Source of the DNA: a virus
Taxonomy: Duplodnaviria > Caudoviricetes
Direction: 5' to 3' (one strand)
DNA length: 55,877 nucleotides
Virus record (IMG/VR): IMGVR_UViG_3300031669_000035
Location: 1-55,877 of that record
A program made the translations under genes and the position numbers. The first letter of the stretch is position 1; each line of letters begins with the position of its first letter. The notes beneath the pieces were generated by a model. It saw only the letters and a program-made list of their open reading frames with translations, searched no databases and was not told the origin of the DNA. Positions 21,834 to 42,003 of the stretch are shown one piece after another.

Positions 21834-22127
21834 ATAAGGAGAATGTTACTATACTTCGCATTCTCCTTATCGAGACTAAGCTGCTAAACCAACCGGAGCT
21901 GGAGCAAGAATTTCTCTGAATAAATTAATTACTTTTCCTTTTACGGAACATAAGTCACTTTCATGCTTTCGCTTTGTTTACCGTCATCCTGCTATCAAAT
22001 CCAAGTCATCCCCGTTTGTTTAAAAAATGCAAAAGAAGTGTGCTTCATTGAGAGGCATCCTTTGCTGGCGTGGAGATGGAGGGGTTCGAACCCTCGTGTA
22101 TACATTCTGCCAATAAACAGACTTACT
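21834..22127 (-). ncRNA. ssrA: circularly permuted (two-piece) tmRNA
   Basis: Acceptor piece ~22127-22071 (T-arm GAGGG-TTCGAAC-CCCTC, then CATCTCCA) precedes a 57-nt intervening segment and the coding piece starting GGGGATGACTTGGATTTGA at 22013. Acceptor stem has G3-U70. Tag GKVINLFREILAPAPVGLAA* at 21938-21876. 12-bp 3' hairpin at 21870-21834. Confidence 0.9.
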
Positions 22128-22130
22128 CAG

Positions 22131-22138
22131 CAAATCTA
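22131..22138 (-). promoter_or_regulatory. sigma70 -7 box (TAGATTTG) for the tmRNA
   Basis: TAnnTTTG immediately upstream of the acceptor piece. Confidence 0.7.
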
Positions 22139-22154
22139 CAAAAAGTTTTTCAAT

Positions 22155-22184
22155 AAAAAAAGCCTTGATAAATTCAAGGCTTTT
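22155..22184 (-). terminator. intrinsic terminator (possibly bidirectional)
   Basis: AAAAGCCTTGA...TCAAGGCTTTT with T tracts on both strands. Confidence 0.75.
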
Positions 22185-22209
22185 ATAATTTTTAAGATTT
22201 TTTTATCTA

Positions 22210-24493: not shown

Positions 24494-24688
24494 ATGAAAA
24501 AAGAAATAGAAAAAGCAATTAGAGAAACATTAGTTGTGGATAACAAACAAAGCATTCATATAGCAGTAGAAAAAATATGGAATTTATTTAATGTTAGCAA
24601 CTGTTCTTGTATAAGTAGAGACACTTTAACTCCTGAAGCAAGAAAAATGTTTGATGATATTGATAAAGCATTAGAAAGAAAAAAATAG
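24494..24688 (+). CDS. hypothetical protein reading through a cassette junction, 64 aa
   Basis: GTTA junction at 24593 falls in the ...NVSNC... codons. Confidence 0.6.
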   Translation: MKKEIEKAIRETLVVDNKQSIHIAVEKIWNLFNVSNCSCISRDTLTPEARKMFDDIDKALERKK

Positions 24689-24752
24689 TTGCTAACGGTA
24701 AATCTATAATGCGTTTTAATGCATTTATAGATAATGTTATAATTCGTTTATT

Positions 24753-24914
24753 ATGAAGATAAATAAAGAAATAAGAAAAAAGGCTATTAAAAGAATGATA
24801 GCGAGGTATGAGAAACTTCAATCAGAAGCAAACCCTTACGGTTTTAATGCTGATGATGGAATGAAATACTACTACTTAATTGATTATTGGGAGGATAGGT
24901 TAAATGAATTATAA
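24753..24914 (+). CDS. cassette-borne small protein, 53 aa (MKINKEIRKK...DRLNEL)
   Basis: Below the track cutoff; flanked by GTTATAATTCGTTTA / TAAATGAATTATAAC; its stop is the TAA of TAAC. Confidence 0.65.
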   Translation: MKINKEIRKKAIKRMIARYEKLQSEANPYGFNADDGMKYYYLIDYWEDRLNEL

Positions 24915-24966
24915 CGTACAGGTATAGGGTTAGTTTTTAGGTGATTTAATAACGAAAATAAACAAT

Positions 24967-25182
24967 ATGAAAGTAGTAGAAGAATTTGAATACGAAGGAT
25001 GGATGAGCCAAGAAGCACAGAAGTTTTTTGAAGGTAAATTGATTAGAGAAGAACGCGATGGATGTGCGATAGTTGGAAGTTTTGTTAAGCTGGCAAACGG
25101 AAATACTCATTTACCTTCAAAAAGTGATAAGTTTAAAAAATACGAAAATGGTAGTATAACGGTAACTTCAATTTACCGATAA
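24967..25182 (+). CDS. small protein inside an attC-like hairpin, 71 aa
   Basis: Lies between the arms at 24912-24941 and 25189-25214. Confidence 0.7.
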   Translation: MKVVEEFEYEGWMSQEAQKFFEGKLIREERDGCAIVGSFVKLANGNTHLPSKSDKFKKYENGSITVTSIYR

Positions 25183-25270
25183 TGTTAGCCTAAAATTAAC
25201 TATATACCGTGTTAGCAAATCGTTTTAATGTTTGCTAACAACCGAATAAACACAACTAAACTAAACTAAA

Positions 25271-28870: not shown

Positions 28871-28898
28871 TAAAATTATTAATTAAAACTTTACAGCA

Positions 28899-29168
28899 AT
28901 GATAACAAAAGAAAATTTGAAGTCCGTAATGGACGCAATAACAAAAGAAGATATTGAAAAAGTCTTTAATTCTAATGATGATTATTTAGCATTGCAATTA
29001 TACATTTTTAATGCTGGTTATGTTGTAGAATTAAATTCTATCGAGCCATGCACATACGATTCAGAAGAAATTGAGGCAAATGGAGGGCTAATAATAGATA
29101 AGGATGATTTTTTAAGGTTGTTTAAAGAGTCTGAAAGTATCAACCCTTTTTTAATTGAATTAATCTAA
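28899..29168 (+). CDS. early hypothetical protein, 89 aa
   Basis: First ORF of the early cluster. Confidence 0.7.
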   Translation: MITKENLKSVMDAITKEDIEKVFNSNDDYLALQLYIFNAGYVVELNSIEPCTYDSEEIEANGGLIIDKDDFLRLFKESESINPFLIELI

Positions 29169-29179
29169 AAATTAAAGCC

Positions 29180-29584
29180 ATGACAAAAGAAGAAAAATTA
29201 AAATACATTATTGACGAATTAAACACAACACCCAAAGAGGGAGTTTATAAGGCAAAGCAATGTATAAAAATTAAAAAGGACGCTTACACCGAAAAAATAG
29301 AAATGTTAGAGAAACTAACTTTTGAACAAATTAAAAAACACTCTTTTGTTAGTGAAGTTTTAAGCCTATCTGAGCGACTCGAAAAGGAAAGCTATATAAA
29401 CAGGCTAAAAAATAAAGTTAATCGTTTAGAGCGTCACGCATACGCTCCAGAAATGAACAAACTACACTTTAAAGATGGTAAAAGCGTGAATACACCGCAA
29501 AGAACAACCATTGAAGAGGCTATAAATTACTTTATTTTTAGTAACTCACTTTATCAAATAAAAAGAATATTATTAAACAACTAA
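29180..29584 (+). CDS. early hypothetical protein, 134 aa
   Basis: AGCCATG start. Confidence 0.7.
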   Translation: MTKEEKLKYIIDELNTTPKEGVYKAKQCIKIKKDAYTEKIEMLEKLTFEQIKKHSFVSEVLSLSERLEKESYINRLKNKVNRLERHAYAPEMNKLHFKDGKSVNTPQRTTIEEAINYFIFSNSLYQIKRILLNN

Positions 29585-29595
29585 ATTTTACAGCC

Positions 29596-29770: not shown

Positions 29771-29938
29771 ATGCAAAAAACAACTAAACTATACAATTTA
29801 ATTTGGATGCTTGACGGCAAACAAAAGGAAGTTATATTAATAAATAAACCTTATGCACTTTGTAAGTGGGAGCAACGCAAAAAAGAAAATACAACACATA
29901 AAACAGGTAAATTAATAATCTTACAATCTAATATTTAA
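29771..29938 (+). CDS. small early protein, 55 aa (MQKTTKLYNLIW...)
   Basis: Not in track; fills the gap in the operon. Confidence 0.55.
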   Translation: MQKTTKLYNLIWMLDGKQKEVILINKPYALCKWEQRKKENTTHKTGKLIILQSNI

Positions 29939-29942
29939 AGCC

Positions 29943-30602
29943 ATGAAAAACTTAAAAGCACAATTAAAAAGAGATGAAAAGCAAACATTTAAAAATAACA
30001 TTGAATCTTTAAATGATTTTAACACTATAGAAGAATTATTGAACCAATGGAGGTTTAAAGATATAATTCCAGTAAGTAGTAAAAACAAAAAATGGTCTTC
30101 AGCTAATGAGCTGAAAGAATACTTAAAAGCACGTTATAAAAAAAGATATGAAGCAAGAACTATTAAAGGGCTTGAGCGAATCGAGACAATAAAAAACTCA
30201 CTTGAAATTGAAAAAATTGTTATTACTGTAGACTGGAATAAAAGCCGCACATGGGGAAATAATGCACAGGCAGAAATAAAAGTTTTCTTAAAAAACGGAC
30301 TTTGCGAATACTTTAAAGGTTCAAGAACTTCGGGGTGTGGCTATGATAAAGAAAGCACTGCAATTTCAGATGCTTTAAACCAATGCAACGGACTATTAAA
30401 ATTATTATACAAAGTAAAAAACAAAGATGTAAATAAATCCAATAGAGATTTAATCGGTTATGGTTCTGGTTACGGACTTTTACCAAGTTTTGAGGGTGGC
30501 GTAGGTGTTTCATGTATGTATAGAATATGCGAATCAATAAACATGAAATTTAAAAACATTGCAAACGGTAAAAACTTTGATGTTTACGAAATAACGAAAT
30601 AG
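29943..30602 (+). CDS. early phage protein with GCGYDK motif, 219 aa
   Basis: W.KSRTWG.N, SGCGYDKESTA, FEGGVG motifs. Confidence 0.7.
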   Translation: MKNLKAQLKRDEKQTFKNNIESLNDFNTIEELLNQWRFKDIIPVSSKNKKWSSANELKEYLKARYKKRYEARTIKGLERIETIKNSLEIEKIVITVDWNKSRTWGNNAQAEIKVFLKNGLCEYFKGSRTSGCGYDKESTAISDALNQCNGLLKLLYKVKNKDVNKSNRDLIGYGSGYGLLPSFEGGVGVSCMYRICESINMKFKNIANGKNFDVYEITK

Positions 30603-30662
30603 TTAACTGATGAGCCTATAAAGGCGAAACAAAGAGACTTAAAACCTCTCTTTGTCTTAACT
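30601..30662 (+). ncRNA. type I hammerhead ribozyme
   Basis: AGTTAA-CTGATGA-GCCT(ATAA)AGGC-GAAA-CAAAGAG...CTCTTTG-TC-TTAACT; complete core, predicted cleavage after 30656. Confidence 0.9.
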
Positions 30663-30677
30663 TAAAAAATTAAAGCC

Positions 30678-31508
30678 ATGAAAAAAGTATTTAACAGTTC
30701 AAGCGATGTAATACATTTATTCGCACAAAGAGACCAAAACGAAGCAAGATGCAGCAACGTATTTTTTGATAATATAAATAAGATATACAGTTACGGACAT
30801 CATTATTTATTAGGGGAGTTTATAGACGATAATACTATAATGATTGACGATAGAGGGTATAGTGTTACAACCTCAAAGCATATAAATCAAATAAATTATG
30901 CTACACGCCAATACAAGCAATTTTATAAAAGTCAAACAGACATTGACACCGTATACGAATCAGTGTTGAGTAATAAAAAAGCTTTAATCAATGCAAGAAA
31001 GCCTGAAAAATATATTACACCTATTTTAAGCCTATTTGAGCGACTTAATGAGTATTTAACGTACACAAAGAATAAAACAGTTAAAAAGTCCGACAAATAC
31101 AAGGAAATTAAATCTATTGTAAAGGTTGTAAGTAATTTCGATGCTGACTTTCAAAAGAAAATGCAAGATACTGAAAAGAAAAGAATTTTAGCATTAAAAA
31201 GAAAGGAAGCAAAGCAGGTAAAAGAAAAGCTACAAAAGTTTAACAGCTATGAAGTAGATAGTATTTACATTGGTGGCGAAGACTTTTTAAGACTATCCAA
31301 AGACGGAACAAAGGTAGAAACGTCTCAAAGGGTATCAGTTAGCAGAGAGAATGCCAAAGCCTTGTATGAAATGATTAAAAGAGGTATCGATATTAAAGGG
31401 AAGCATATTGAAAACTATGTCGTAACAAGTATAAACGGCACTTTAAAAATAGGTTGTCATAACATTAATATTGATAGTGTACATGCTATTGGTAAACAGT
31501 TAACATAG
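30678..31508 (+). CDS. early phage protein, 276 aa
   Basis: IYSYGHHY, YSVTTSKH, VETSQ, IGCHNI motifs. Confidence 0.7.
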   Translation: MKKVFNSSSDVIHLFAQRDQNEARCSNVFFDNINKIYSYGHHYLLGEFIDDNTIMIDDRGYSVTTSKHINQINYATRQYKQFYKSQTDIDTVYESVLSNKKALINARKPEKYITPILSLFERLNEYLTYTKNKTVKKSDKYKEIKSIVKVVSNFDADFQKKMQDTEKKRILALKRKEAKQVKEKLQKFNSYEVDSIYIGGEDFLRLSKDGTKVETSQRVSVSRENAKALYEMIKRGIDIKGKHIENYVVTSINGTLKIGCHNINIDSVHAIGKQLT

Positions 31509-31864: not shown

Positions 31865-32347
31865 ATGACAACTACAGAAATATTAAGCAAAAGATTTACT
31901 AATCTTAGAGACGATGTAGTAAAAGAAATAAAACAAATATCTTCAGGTAATACATTTGAAATAGAAATGAACCTTTACAACATGGAAGGTCAAGGGCTTA
32001 TTTATATCGTAAAAGATGGAGAGATTGCAGAGAAGCAAAGCGATGAAGATGGAGACAATGTTTATATTGAGTTTTACGAAGTAAGCTTAGATGATTTAGT
32101 ATTCATTCTTGAAGCAATAACCGAAGAGAAAACATGTAACTATTTCTCAATAAACGGCTACTGGAAAGACGACAAGTCAGAATTTGAAAACCTAATTGTA
32201 AAAGAGTTTGATGAAATAGACGAAGAAACAGACGAGCTTGTTTTTTACTATGGATTATCTGAAAAAGACATTCAAGAAGCTATAGAGCTGAAAGAAGAAA
32301 CAGCTCATGATTTTGTAATAACATCATACGAACCAACTAATATTTAA
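31865..32347 (+). CDS. very acidic early protein, 160 aa
   Basis: CAGCCATG start; D/E-rich. Confidence 0.65.
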   Translation: MTTTEILSKRFTNLRDDVVKEIKQISSGNTFEIEMNLYNMEGQGLIYIVKDGEIAEKQSDEDGDNVYIEFYEVSLDDLVFILEAITEEKTCNYFSINGYWKDDKSEFENLIVKEFDEIDEETDELVFYYGLSEKDIQEAIELKEETAHDFVITSYEPTNI

Positions 32348-38308: not shown

Positions 38309-38572
38309 ATGAGCAAAGAGAATGAAGTTAAAGAACCCACTAACTTTGAATTTAATGAGCGAGTGGTTTGGGACTCAGGATTTGGATATGAAATAGGACA
38401 CTTTTTGGGTGAAGGAAATTCATATAATACTTGGTTAATTGACGTAAGAACTGGATTGATTGTAGAGCCGTTTTCATACTCAAAAATCGAAGTGTTCAAG
38501 TATACAAATGAACTTATCAATAAGTTAACCGCCAAATATGGTTATGAGAAACGTTTCTCGGAGCTGTTTTAA
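38309..38572 (+). CDS. array-borne hypothetical protein, 87 aa
   Basis: ORF between TAAC 38247 and TAAC 38581. Confidence 0.65.
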   Translation: MSKENEVKEPTNFEFNERVVWDSGFGYEIGHFLGEGNSYNTWLIDVRTGLIVEPFSYSKIEVFKYTNELINKLTAKYGYEKRFSELF

Positions 38573-38654
38573 ATGGTGGCTAACGTTTTGGCTAAACAGC
38601 GTTTTAATGCTGTTTAGGTGGTGTTATAATTTGTTTGATTTAAAATAATAAAAT

Positions 38655-38861
38655 ATGAACGACAAAGATAAAATACATAATATGGCTTCTTGTATGTTGT
38701 CAATATTAGATAGTTTAAAACTATACGATAATGACAGTTTATTACTTGATAATGAAACCTTATCAGAGGTTATGTTTAGAAAAATGAAGGCTTACAATAT
38801 AGATTTGAATAAAGAATTGGGGTTTACTCACTTGAAACCGATAACTAAAAATAAATTATAA
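38655..38861 (+). CDS. cassette-borne protein, 68 aa
   Basis: Flanked by GTTATAATTTGTTT / AAATAAATTATAAC. Confidence 0.7.
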   Translation: MNDKDKIHNMASCMLSILDSLKLYDNDSLLLDNETLSEVMFRKMKAYNIDLNKELGFTHLKPITKNKL

Positions 38862-38935
38862 CGTTTAGTGTATGAAATGTGGAGCAAAGCGGAATTTTTT
38901 ATATACCGTGTTATGCTCTTTTAAATTTAGAAAAA

Positions 38936-39283
38936 ATGGAAGCTATAGAAAAATTTGAAGATGAATACAACTCTTTAATGTTAGAGTTAGATATGTTGGA
39001 AAATAAGAAAATAAATAAACTAAAAGATAAGTTTGTTAAAAAACTCCCTTTTAAAAAGGGTGATATTATTTATAATGTAACCGGAATTATAAAAATAGAT
39101 AATATTGATTTTAAAATAGGTTATAATGGTAGAGGTGAATTATTACCAATATATGCCACATTTAGTGGGGTTAAGTATAAATGGGTAAAAGATGGTTTTG
39201 TAACACCTACCAAAAATAAACAAAGAGGGGATTTACATTCTTATGGGAATTTAAAAAGGATAGATAAAAGTAAGATTGTATAA
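38936..39283 (+). CDS. cassette-borne protein, 115 aa
   Basis: Start moved to ATG 38936 (MEAIEKF); flanked by GTTATGCTC / GAGCATAAC. Confidence 0.7.
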   Translation: MEAIEKFEDEYNSLMLELDMLENKKINKLKDKFVKKLPFKKGDIIYNVTGIIKIDNIDFKIGYNGRGELLPIYATFSGVKYKWVKDGFVTPTKNKQRGDLHSYGNLKRIDKSKIV

Positions 39284-39402
39284 TTGAGCATAACGCATGG
39301 TGGTAAAAAATCGTTTTAATGTTTTTTACCACGTGTTATACGCTGGCACGGTTGATTAAACGATAAACTTAAATTGAAACACAAAACAAAATTTTTATTA
39401 AA

Positions 39403-39597
39403 ATGAGCGAGGGCAAAAAAGAAATTAAACACTTAAAGGAAAAAGAAATGCAAGAAGTAATTGACTTCTATTATTTCATTGATGATTACGGACATATTTT
39501 TTATGATGACCCTAAGATATTAGAAGAACCATTTAAGAAGATTATTGAAGGCATTGAGCAAGTAAAAAATATAATTAACGATAACTATGATAGATAA
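39403..39597 (+). CDS. cassette-borne protein, 64 aa
   Basis: First gene of a two-gene cassette. Confidence 0.65.
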   Translation: MSEGKKEIKHLKEKEMQEVIDFYYFIDDYGHIFYDDPKILEEPFKKIIEGIEQVKNIINDNYDR

Positions 39598-40231
39598 AAA
39601 GAAAATACTGAATTTATATGCAGGGATAGGCGGAAACCGAAAACTGTGGGGTAATGAATATGAAGTAACGGCAGTTGAATTTGAACAATACATTGCAGAT
39701 GCTTATAAGGAACTTAATCCAAATGACGAAATAATAGTTTCTGATGCACACCAATACTTAATTGAGAACTTTCAAAAGTTTGACTTTATTTGGAGTAGCC
39801 CACCTTGCCCATCACATAGCAGAACAAGCACTTCATTAAGCGGATGGGGAGTATTTAGATACCCTGATATGAAACTATACGAGGAAATAATTTTCTTGAA
39901 ACACTTTTTTAAAGGAAAATTTGTGATTGAAAATGTGATACCATATTATGAAACTTTGGTAAAACCGACCATTGAAATTGATAGGCATTTATTTTGGTCA
40001 AACTTTCCAATAAAACCATTAAAAGTTGAAAGAAATTATGATGTAAGTAGAGCAACAAAAGAAGTACTTGCAGAACATCACGGTATTATTTTGCCCGAAA
40101 AAACAAAAGATAAACGAAAACTTTTGAGAAACTGTGTAAACCCTGCTGTTGGATTACATATTATTAATTGTGCGTTGGTAGATTTTAATAAAAATTTTGA
40201 ACCGCAAACTCTATTTGGAAACGAAATGTAG
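39587..40231 (+). CDS. short C5-cytosine DNA methyltransferase, 214 aa (cassette-borne)
   Basis: LNLYAGIGG (motif I), SSPPC (IV), IENV (VI), R.LFWSNF, LRNCV. Confidence 0.8.
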   Translation: MIDKKKILNLYAGIGGNRKLWGNEYEVTAVEFEQYIADAYKELNPNDEIIVSDAHQYLIENFQKFDFIWSSPPCPSHSRTSTSLSGWGVFRYPDMKLYEEIIFLKHFFKGKFVIENVIPYYETLVKPTIEIDRHLFWSNFPIKPLKVERNYDVSRATKEVLAEHHGIILPEKTKDKRKLLRNCVNPAVGLHIINCALVDFNKNFEPQTLFGNEM

Positions 40232-40276
40232 TGCTTGCGTATAACACCCGAATAAACAACATTCAAAATTTTGAAC

Positions 40277-40734: not shown

Positions 40735-40823
40735 TATTTTATAACAACCGGCTAAACACAACTTAACCAATTAATAAAAATATAAAATGAGTATTATCCT
40801 TTTTAAATAAAATAAAAAAACCT

Positions 40824-41087
40824 ATGAAAACAAGAGGAAGTAAATTAATAATAACAAAGAAAGACCTTAACAGAAGGGTGGTCCTTGTTAGAGGAATAGA
40901 ATTTGAAGAACAGATGGCTGGAGCAAGAGATGCCTGCAAAAGTATAGCTCCAGATGCTGTAGTTATTAAAGAAGAATCACTTGAGGACTACAATAAATTC
41001 AGAGATAAGAACGGTAAAAAACCACTACCTGAATCTGAAATATTAATAGTTGATTTAACAATAAAAGAGGAGGATTTAGATGTATAA
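40824..41087 (+). CDS. hypothetical protein, 87 aa
   Basis: ORF in operon. Confidence 0.6.
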   Translation: MKTRGSKLIITKKDLNRRVVLVRGIEFEEQMAGARDACKSIAPDAVVIKEESLEDYNKFRDKNGKKPLPESEILIVDLTIKEEDLDV

Positions 41088-42003
41088 AGGGATTAACGTT
41101 CTATCACTTTTCGATGGAATGAGTTGCGGACAAATAGCACTTAATAAAGTAGGAATTGAGTATGAAAATTACTTTGCTTCTGAAATTGATAAATATGGAA
41201 TTAAAGTATCAATACATAATTACCCAAACACCAAACATTTAGGTAATGTTAAAGAAATAGATTATAGTAAATTACCAAAAATTGATTTGTTGATTGGTGG
41301 CAGTCCTTGTCAATCTTTTTCATTCGCTGGGAAACAAAAAGGAATGATAACAAAGGATAATGTTGAAATATTAACATTGGAGCATTATTTAGAATTGAAA
41401 AATAATGGTTTTGAATTTCAAGGGCAATCATATTTGTTTTGGGAATATATGAACGCATTAATTACTTTGAAACCTAAATATTTTTTATTGGAAAATGTTA
41501 AAATGAGTGATAAATGGAAAAAAGTTTTAAGTAATGCGATTGGTTGCGAACCAATACTTATTTGTAGTGGAAATATTTCAGCACAAAACAGACCACGTTA
41601 TTATTGGACTAATATACCAAATGTAGTTGAACCAACTAAAATAGATATAAAACTGAAAGATATTCTTCAAACAGATGTATCTGAAAGGTATAATATTAAA
41701 GACGAAAGAGTTGATACACTAATGAAGTTTTTAAGTAAAAATTATAAACCGACTGGTAAAGTACCAACGCTAACAACTGAATTAGCACATAGTACTGGTA
41801 AAAACTTTTACCCAAAAACATTAGTTGAGATATTTGATGTATTAGGATATTATAGAAGATTGACACCTATCGAAGTAGAAAGATTACAAACAGTACCCGA
41901 TGACTATACAAGCGTAGTTACCGATACTGAAAGATACAGAATGTTGGGTAATGGTTGGACTGTAGATGTGATTGCTCATATACTTAAAAACATGGGATTA
42001 TGA
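41080..42003 (+). CDS. C5-cytosine DNA methyltransferase, 307 aa
   Basis: LSLFDGMSCG, GGSPCQSFS, LLENV, QNRPRYYW, LGNGW. Confidence 0.92.
   Translation: MYKGINVLSLFDGMSCGQIALNKVGIEYENYFASEIDKYGIKVSIHNYPNTKHLGNVKEIDYSKLPKIDLLIGGSPCQSFSFAGKQKGMITKDNVEILTLEHYLELKNNGFEFQGQSYLFWEYMNALITLKPKYFLLENVKMSDKWKKVLSNAIGCEPILICSGNISAQNRPRYYWTNIPNVVEPTKIDIKLKDILQTDVSERYNIKDERVDTLMKFLSKNYKPTGKVPTLTTELAHSTGKNFYPKTLVEIFDVLGYYRRLTPIEVERLQTVPDDYTSVVTDTERYRMLGNGWTVDVIAHILKNMGL

Follow-up and report, generated by a model that had tools for sequence, protein, structure and literature searches.

The hairpins that recur between small genes in two regions of the viral DNA considered here are likely, in our judgment, to be attC-like recombination sites bounding mobile gene cassettes, which would place the phage among the carriers of CALINs, i.e., integron-type sites without an integrase. 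Several of its tiny early genes probably come and go as such cassettes. The window, by which we mean the whole stretch of 55,877 nucleotides that was analysed, is an IMG/VR virus record that is ~77% complete and includes a portal gene and replication genes; the sequencing runs that contain it are labelled as soil and sediment. Its repeated element is ~65 nt long: from a TAAC box a short spacer leads to a ~11-bp stem of variable sequence, the apex has the invariant sequence CGTTTTAATG, and the return stem is followed by a TGTTA(TA) box. This anatomy, the covariation of the stem, the pairing of each cassette's own two ends, the gain or loss of cassettes at TAAC and the presence of a recombinase beside bacterial arrays of the same element are all observed directly.

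Two arrays of elements and putative cassettes

With a covariance model of the element (R1), five copies are found in the window at E <=0.005, all on the + strand, and two arrays, at 24.5-25.3 kb and 38.6-40.2 kb, hold all of them. The parts of the arrays are listed below.

Array 1
24541..24597, +: degenerate element (TAAC, imperfect 8-bp hairpin, TGTTA), inside ORF 24494-24688
24593..24696, +: cassette A; ends GTTAGCAACT (24593) and AGTTGCTAAC (ending 24696) pair 10/10
24683..24746, +: canonical element 1; R1 53.6 bits, E 2.8e-9
24736..24915, +: cassette B; ends GTTATAATTCGTTTA (24736) and TAAATGAATTATAAC (ending 24915) pair 14/15
24912..24932, +: minimal junction (TAAC, 13 nt, GTTA), hairpin absent
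24929..25200, +: cassette C, with 71-aa ORF 24967-25182; bounds by sequence reading
25193..25253, +: partial element; R1 33.9 bits, E 6.2e-5
25236..25252, +: array-closing string, TAAC + AACCGAATAAACA
Array 2
38571..38633, +: canonical element 2, head of the array; R1 58.4 bits, E 2.3e-10
38623..38862, +: cassette D; ends pair over 10 consecutive bp, 13/14 overall
38849..38920, +: degenerate element with 18 other bases in the apex position; R1 25.3 bits, E 0.005
38910..39294, +: cassette E; ends GTTATGCTC and GAGCATAAC pair 9/9; 115-aa ORF 38936-39283
39281..39345, +: canonical element 3; R1 70.8 bits, E 4.3e-13
39335..40245, +: cassette F; ends GTTATACGC and GCGTATAAC pair 9/9

The degenerate element of array 1 gave no match to R1 and is a putative part, read from the sequence by eye. 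Cassette A lacks its own gene; what it encodes is the C-terminal part of a 64-aa ORF. Canonical element 1 has its TAAC at 24693-24696, an imperfect stem, the apex at 24712-24721 and TGTTATA at 24735-24741. The gene of cassette B is a 53-aa ORF (24753-24914) whose stop codon lies within the TAAC box and whose DNA is ~80% identical to that of gp053 of Cellulophaga phage phi19:1; with the 53-aa protein as the query, the phi19:1 contig was the sole related viral locus, and with the 187-aa and 115-aa proteins as queries there was none. No elements flank the homologue in phi19:1, a phage in which the apex motif occurs twice, and the right arm of the repeat overlaps coding sequence. The minimal junction scores only 11.4 bits with R1 (E 5.8), which is not significant, and a junction of similar kind (TAAC, 5 nt, GTTAG) is left at a cassette indel in viral locus L071. 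Cassette C ends in an imperfect repeat (GTTAGTTTTTAGG vs GCCTAAAATTAAC, one mismatch and one gap), and a perfect 15-nt inverted repeat (25025-25039 / 25109-25123) lies within its 71-aa ORF. The partial element has a hairpin at 25210-25240 with a 10-bp stem and the apex CGTTTTAATG and is without the canonical TAACG and TGTTATA boxes. The string that closes array 1, TAAC followed by A(A/C)CCGAATAAACA, ends array 2 as well (40242-40258, exact to pattern) and has one further copy at 40742-40758 (2 mismatches), giving 3 copies against 0.01 expected; judging by its letters it resembles an element reduced to spacer and left arm, lacking apex and return arm, and it could be a half-site or a primary insertion site.

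In array 2, cassette D holds a 68-aa ORF (38655-38861), again with its stop codon within the TAAC box. Canonical element 2 is 93.6% identical over 47 nt (38582-38628) to elements of a Tenacibaculum genome, a hint at the host group and no more. Cassette F holds a 64-aa ORF (39403-39597) and a 214-aa ORF (39587-40231) similar to C5 DNA methylases in their N-terminal part, with a match limited to profile positions 2-78 of 324; it is one of two C5 DNA methylase-like ORFs in the window, the other being at 41080-42003. Both ends of cassette F are conserved in viral loci L019 and L031, the middle being without a match, and the likeness to L019 starts only at the apex, not at TAAC. Against PHROGs and Pfam no cassette ORF except the methylase-like one had a match, and BLAST of both arrays against isolated phages returned only short pieces.

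An earlier note on this DNA had proposed two arrays built by one grammar, and every string that it quoted is found at the position given. Its inverted repeat at 24593-24696 (GTTAGCAACT / AGTTGCTAAC) pairs throughout; its hairpin at 24693-24739 has CGTTTTAATG at the centre and one bulged T in the stem; and its repeat at 24736-24915 (GTTATAATTCGTTTA / TAAATGAATTATAAC) encloses the 53-aa gene. The "two more units" that it saw further on come down to cassette C, which stands with its imperfect repeat, and to the partial element at 25193-25253 (33.9 bits), which is only part of a unit. The proposal that CGTTTTAATG occupies the centres of four hairpins is borne out: exact copies number four, all on the + strand (24712, 25221, 38600 and 39312), where 0.17 are expected and none of 100 shuffles reaches four, and three of these are in perfect hairpins of 9-11 bp, the fourth (24712) being imperfect by its bulged T. 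With one mismatch allowed the count of 10 against 5.33 expected is unremarkable. The note had also fitted all six GTTA junctions to TA-N5-TGTTA; the six exist (24585, 24728, 25203, 38615, 38902 and 39327), and the motif alone is not enriched, with 27 occurrences in the whole window vs 18.56 expected and 6 of 100 shuffles as high. Inverted repeats of the form GTTA...TAAC (>=9 bp, within 1.5 kb) make up nine distinct pairs in the window, of which six run head-to-tail across the arrays (24593/24696, 24736/24915, 25211/25239, 38623/38862, 38910/39294 and 39335/40245) and three, lying outside, are at about the chance level. On both strands together there are 18 such repeats against a simulated mean of 7.24, with 2 of 100 simulations as high.

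Other structures and other modes of change are also present in this genome. At E up to 1, Rfam has no family for the hairpins over 22-41 kb. Two strong hairpins, 21834-21870 (12-bp perfect stem) and 22158-22184 (11-bp perfect stem), are at the switch point from leftward structural to rightward early genes, with weak tmRNA-like Rfam matches at 22000-22191, and 30580-30661 is a weak match to the RAGATH-1 hammerhead ribozyme (31.2 bits, gathering score 56.3, E 0.097). In related strains from runs X4 and X6, 697 bp of the window (28889-29585) are missing and 665 bp (29932-30596) are replaced by 1177 other letters. The borders of both stretches are just 5' of gene starts and have in common a TTTACAGC(A/C)ATGA-like string; gene swapping here is a second mode, away from the hairpin elements.

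A covarying family of viral elements

A scan of IMG/VR contigs for the apex and TGTTATA at 12-13 nt spacing located the element in at least 120 IMG/VR stretches. We used 132 matches, none of them closer than 40 nt or 90 nt to a locus end; among the 123 distinct contexts in the matches listed, 92 have a perfect stem of at least 6 bp next to the apex, which in 47 is exactly 11 bp. The 5' half of the consensus runs from an ATTG-like box through (A/C)TAAC, then G and ~4 nt, to a stem of ~11 bp with TA nearly always at a fixed place; the 3' half consists of (T)CGTTTTAATG, the return stem, 1-2 nt and TGTTATA. The apex can close through C-G, G.T and T-A, all three of them invariant. Conserved leaders follow the element. 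A few hairpin "families" recur across many contigs, elements are found at contig ends in some assemblies, and some viral copies have insertions in the apex and reach ~105 nt.

Covariation was assessed in an alignment, A1, of 67 sequences (the window's four, and 63 chosen out of 110 distinct copies whose stems have at least 6 bp). TAAC and GTTA are each at least 90% conserved in it, with a 5' spacer of ~5 nt and a 3' spacer of 1-2 nt. Paired cells amount to 89.3% as compared to 71.6% in shuffles (0/500 as high) and 31-50% in slid controls, a share that is inflated by the preselection for stems of at least 6 bp. The compensatory changes are real: double-sided changes fill 240 cells vs 80 in shuffles (0/500 as high), and 11 of the 19 pairs exhibit compensatory change. 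The shuffles for CGTTTTAATG, the R1 E-values and the covariation rule out chance as the origin of the elements.

Cassette ends and whole-cassette differences

The two ends of a unit were examined for pairing with each other. For each pair of neighbouring elements, the stretch that starts at GTTA of element i was compared with the one that ends at TAAC of element i+1, using the top 170 of 175 R1 hits in 100 viral loci, less 30 whose boxes could not be placed by regular expression. At least 8 consecutive bp are formed between neighbouring elements' flanks in 22 of 50 pairs, as compared to 4 of 140 for the two flanks of one element and 0 of 22 when one element is skipped. Two single-ORF cassettes with 9-bp end pairing could also be read from the sequence of a bacterial (Aquimarina) array.

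Comparisons of 35 pairs of similar viral loci yielded five collinear gaps, three of which are whole cassettes whose junctions have only TAAC(G) in common, the exact phosphate not being resolvable. Between flanks with 99-100% identity, loci L071 and L114 are distinguished by two cassettes, one of 387 bp and one of 745 bp, and L108 has an 876-bp stretch with a DNA-methyltransferase-like cassette where L105 has 94 bp. The two remaining gaps are a 362-bp gap between L071 and L114 that is away from any element, and a replacement of similar length between L044 and L105. The extra 387-bp unit is made up of hairpin, GTTA, leader, gene and TAAC, and from this makeup it follows that the hairpin moves with the downstream gene and that the crossover is in the 5' box. 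The earlier note, with its GTTA junctions, is thereby corrected, the indels placing the exchange point in the TAAC box and not at GTTA. No target-site duplication was seen at the indels, and adjacent units have a single TAAC box in common. In loci L028 and L080 unrelated sequence gives way, at TAAC, to a hairpin and cassette that are 100% identical; the identity extends through the next hairpin (of the commonest type, with one base different) as far as GTTATG(T).

Contigs of four sequencing runs were also compared. In run X1 they break at or near elements (38588, 39337), and summed word depth is 90-117 over pieces of the arrays vs ~25 elsewhere; in run X4 a joint falls directly after GTTA at 39338. 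We do not count such joints, including one at 24696, the C of TAAC, as evidence, because their sides are only ~30 nt long, the likeness is 85%, and other genomes may be the source.

Arrays of the same element in bacteria

Among the matches listed from the same scan of bacterial genomes, stemmed copies occur in Bacteroidota, beside stemless chance matches (e.g., Helicobacter). In an Aquimarina genome (G001), all 10 genome-wide R1 hits are on a single strand at 130-241 kb, and with filters off over 100 kb there are 15. The array that contains them is over 100 kb long, with co-directional ORFs of ~90-900 aa, and 2 kb upstream of the first element a 380-aa Xer/IntI-like tyrosine recombinase reads toward the array. 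Many elements of this array (150001-250000 of G001 C1) are 79 nt long, with an extra small hairpin between CGTT and ATG. The array's family, the Flavobacteriaceae, has an R1 hit at E <=0.001 in 35 of 101 sampled genomes. Six genomes were searched with PF00589: a recombinase stands at the array head in G001, G040 (where the gene is split in two frames), G053 and G082, and in these four Flavobacteriaceae genomes the elements are confined to the recombinase-headed arrays; in G075 this search found none close to the elements, and those of G068 are scattered over 6 contigs. The array genes are mostly without a family, exceptions including DUF6000 and LRR.

The array recombinases are mutually 50-61% identical. 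Their best named family is NF040815 (XerA/integron integrase; 213-229 bits), and on TIGR02249 (integron integrase) they score 199-210 bits, below the cut-off of 265, aligning in two stretches with the middle of the profile skipped. The G001 enzyme, the only one searched against structures, likewise matches the IntI4 structure 2a3v in two stretches. Unlike intI, these recombinase genes are co-directional with their arrays.

All copies within a locus have one orientation, and phage genes and bacterial genes run in opposite directions with respect to the element. By crude ORF calls, + ORFs lie on both sides of 43/71 viral copies, with divergent genes at 2/71, while - ORFs lie on both sides of 17/39 bacterial copies, with 5/39 convergent, 0/39 divergent and 6/39 (some on short contigs) having + ORFs on both sides. 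Mismatches in the outer stem are of the G.T type 15 times and of the A.C type never, and this bias together with the invariant G.T of the apex marks one strand as favoured. In phages the favoured strand is sense to the genes; bacterial arrays, like integrons, have it antisense. Since the folding strand is antisense to the bacterial genes, a function at the DNA level is favoured.

A model for cassette exchange and its rivals

The proposed mechanism would work as follows. Each site, as single-stranded DNA, would fold on one strand (TAAC ... CGTTTTAATG ... TGTTA) into an outer stem of TAAC with GTTA, an asymmetric internal loop, the variable ~11-bp stem and an apex with C-G, G.T and T-A as its closing pairs. 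The 5' TAAC box would be cut by a Xer/IntI-like tyrosine recombinase; the unit exchanged would consist of hairpin, GTTA, leader, gene and TAAC; and in the circular form of this unit its own two ends would pair and the outer stem be rebuilt. The acting recombinase would most likely be that of the host, because such recombinases head the Flavobacteriaceae arrays of the same element and a PF00589 profile search found none in the window (~77% of the genome), and the reaction may go on during phage infection.

Several observations weigh against attC-like cassette sites. No recombinase was found in the window, the bacterial enzymes are atypical as integron integrases, and the orientation of the sites is opposite in phages and bacteria. 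Some borders of likeness fall at GTTA or at the apex, not at TAAC (L028/L080, L019 and the X4 joint at 39338). G075 has no recombinase nearby and G068 has dispersed elements; and in the phages there are a cassette (A) without its own gene, a degenerate element within an ORF and a phi19:1 homologue without elements.

The hairpins may have a regulatory role in phage transcripts alongside one in recombination. A regulatory role by itself is the substance of one rival, by which the elements would be composite terminator and promoter hairpins between early genes, PeSL-like, and gene shuffling would be a by-product of homologous recombination. The phage elements are in fact intergenic and co-oriented with genes (the 43 of 71 with + ORFs on both sides, against two divergent cases), a T-rich TTGTTATA follows the return stem, conserved leaders come after the element, and TGTTATAAT, present at 24735 and 38622, would resemble an extended -10 box. 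It is nonetheless an improbable account: in bacteria the element lies antisense to its flanking genes (17/39), and in four genomes it occurs solely in recombinase-headed arrays; the pairing of a cassette's own ends and the invariant apex are useless to a terminator; and the three indel junctions share 4-6 nt, which is too little for homologous recombination. The Bacteroidetes-type host promoter (TAnnTTTG) was considered separately, and the element boxes do not fit it.

Two further rivals are less probable again. Selfish miniature elements of the MITE or REP kind, with GTTA...TAAC as terminal inverted repeats, moved by a transposase and enclosing small genes by accident, would account for the repeats of 9-15 bp around single genes, for hairpin "families" that recur in many contigs and for elements at some contig ends. 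Target-site duplications were not seen, neighbours here sharing one TAAC box; the hairpin lies outside the repeats, each locus has a single orientation, and what accompanies the elements in bacteria is a tyrosine recombinase, at the head of the array, all of which makes such elements quite unlikely. We give least credence to RNA structures of phage early transcripts, e.g., processing sites formed by pairing of the flanks of a cistron. In phages the folding strand is also that of the mRNA, in which G.T mismatches would become G.U wobbles, but bacterial arrays have their genes antisense to it, Rfam gave no match, and the indels at TAAC would be left unexplained. The attC-like cassette reading upholds the claim of the earlier note that a single cassette grammar at two loci is neither chance nor plain terminators, by virtue of the covarying family, the complementary ends, the whole-cassette differences and the recombinase-headed arrays.

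A wider reading may be entertained, if tentatively. Bacteroidota could have an integron-analogous system of their own, in which one folded site is common to Xer-headed chromosomal arrays and many virulent phages, the phages carrying the cassettes inverted (hairpin and leader before the gene), using the host's recombinase, and trading early genes, among them orphan methyltransferases and further genes with a likely anti-defence role, with one another and perhaps with host arrays. Anti-defence functions tend toward small, fast-changing phage early genes whose gain and loss are poorly understood, and integron-like cassettes have so far been reported in only a handful of phages. If the sites are active, an integron-type, site-specific cassette mechanism would be common, not rare, in marine and soil Bacteroidota phages, and the flux of phage genes would be tied to large recombinase-headed arrays of the hosts. 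The invariant apex and the two boxes provide a simple search handle for cassette borders, and Polaribacter phage P12002L and Cellulophaga phage phi19:1 are cultured test systems.

Comparison with known systems

The kind of cassette site is not in itself new, since attC clusters in virulent phages have been published, P12002L among them (PMC9892861). As given there, a phage CALIN is a set of at least two predicted attC sites within ~3 kb and no integron integrase, and Qi et al. 2023 counted 17 CALINs in 10,705 phage genomes (PMC9892861). The paper also describes the virulent Polaribacter phage P12002L as having a CALIN with two methyltransferase genes, whose attC2 was recombined by IntI1 into attI1 (PMC9892861). 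R1 places elements in P12002L at 30001-30066, 30902-30965, 32216-32291 and 38874-38946, co-oriented with genes, and the first two of these hits flank the methyltransferase genes; from its place beside two methyltransferase genes in that account, P12002L_attC2 would be one of the R1 hits. Our literature search, supplementary material aside, did not find any earlier account of an apex that is invariant, of phages carrying the sites inverted, of indels bounded by TAAC or of a connection with Flavobacteriia arrays; a search on the apex string returned primer lists and the like, and one on stem-loop cassettes of Flavobacteria phages nothing relevant.

The element is like the attC sites of integrons in being a folded imperfect palindrome with core boxes AAC and GTT, in having stems that vary and a spacer that stays unpaired, and in favouring one strand. 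The palindrome with AAC/GTT boxes, inner stem (~11 bp), spacer and loop is evident in A1; the structure is kept while the stem varies (double-sided changes, 11 of 19 pairs); and the three indel junctions within TAAC(G) put the crossover in the AAC/GTT triplet. The boxes fit the consensus RYYYAAC / GTTRRRY (PMC9892861) only in their TAAC/GTTA core. The loops of attC vary, whereas the apex CGTTTTAATG is invariant; the phage genes are on the folding strand, the reverse of integrons; and the exchange junction is in the box that adjoins the upstream gene. The system is not a complete integron, which has an IntI with the extra domain, divergent from the array, and an attI: the window gave no PF00589 match, and the bacterial array recombinases score below the TIGR02249 cut-off and are co-directional with their arrays. 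With phage CALINs there is agreement in that single small genes lie between sites, some cassettes carry orphan DNA methyltransferases, and no integrase was found in the phage; by our own model R1 the window has 5 hits in two clusters and no recombinase, the CALIN class itself being defined by IntegronFinder/HattCI. The frequency differs, the element being present in at least 120 IMG/VR stretches as compared to the 17 CALINs in 10,705 phage genomes counted in PMC9892861.

The arrays of the Flavobacteriaceae resemble rAID-1 (Ross et al. 2019), which is described as a feature of Bacteroidales chromosomes that carries immunity genes, with repeats "reminiscent of integrons" (bioRxiv 10.1101/471110). 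A 5' XerD-like recombinase (>44% identical to that of B. fragilis), co-directional low-GC genes and repeated intergenic motifs are described there (bioRxiv 10.1101/471110). In both, an XerD-like recombinase heads co-directional small genes that are mostly of unknown function, and G001, G040, G053 and G082 have this arrangement, as compared by layout. The phage window, having no recombinase, does not have it, and rAID-1, as described, is a matter of bacterial chromosomes, not phages.

A further parallel is the PeSL of T4-type phages, promoter-terminator composites that reportedly recombine by homology (PMC2839356, PMC4122927). Those and the elements described here are alike as repeated intergenic stem-loops between small, variable early genes, tied to gene gain and loss. 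An early promoter with a stem-loop that is shuffled by homology does not describe the element, whose junctions share 4-6 nt and which is antisense in bacteria. Unlike PeSL, the cassettes have only TAAC in common at their junctions, their ends pair with one another, and the corresponding bacterial arrays are headed by a recombinase and have the opposite orientation.
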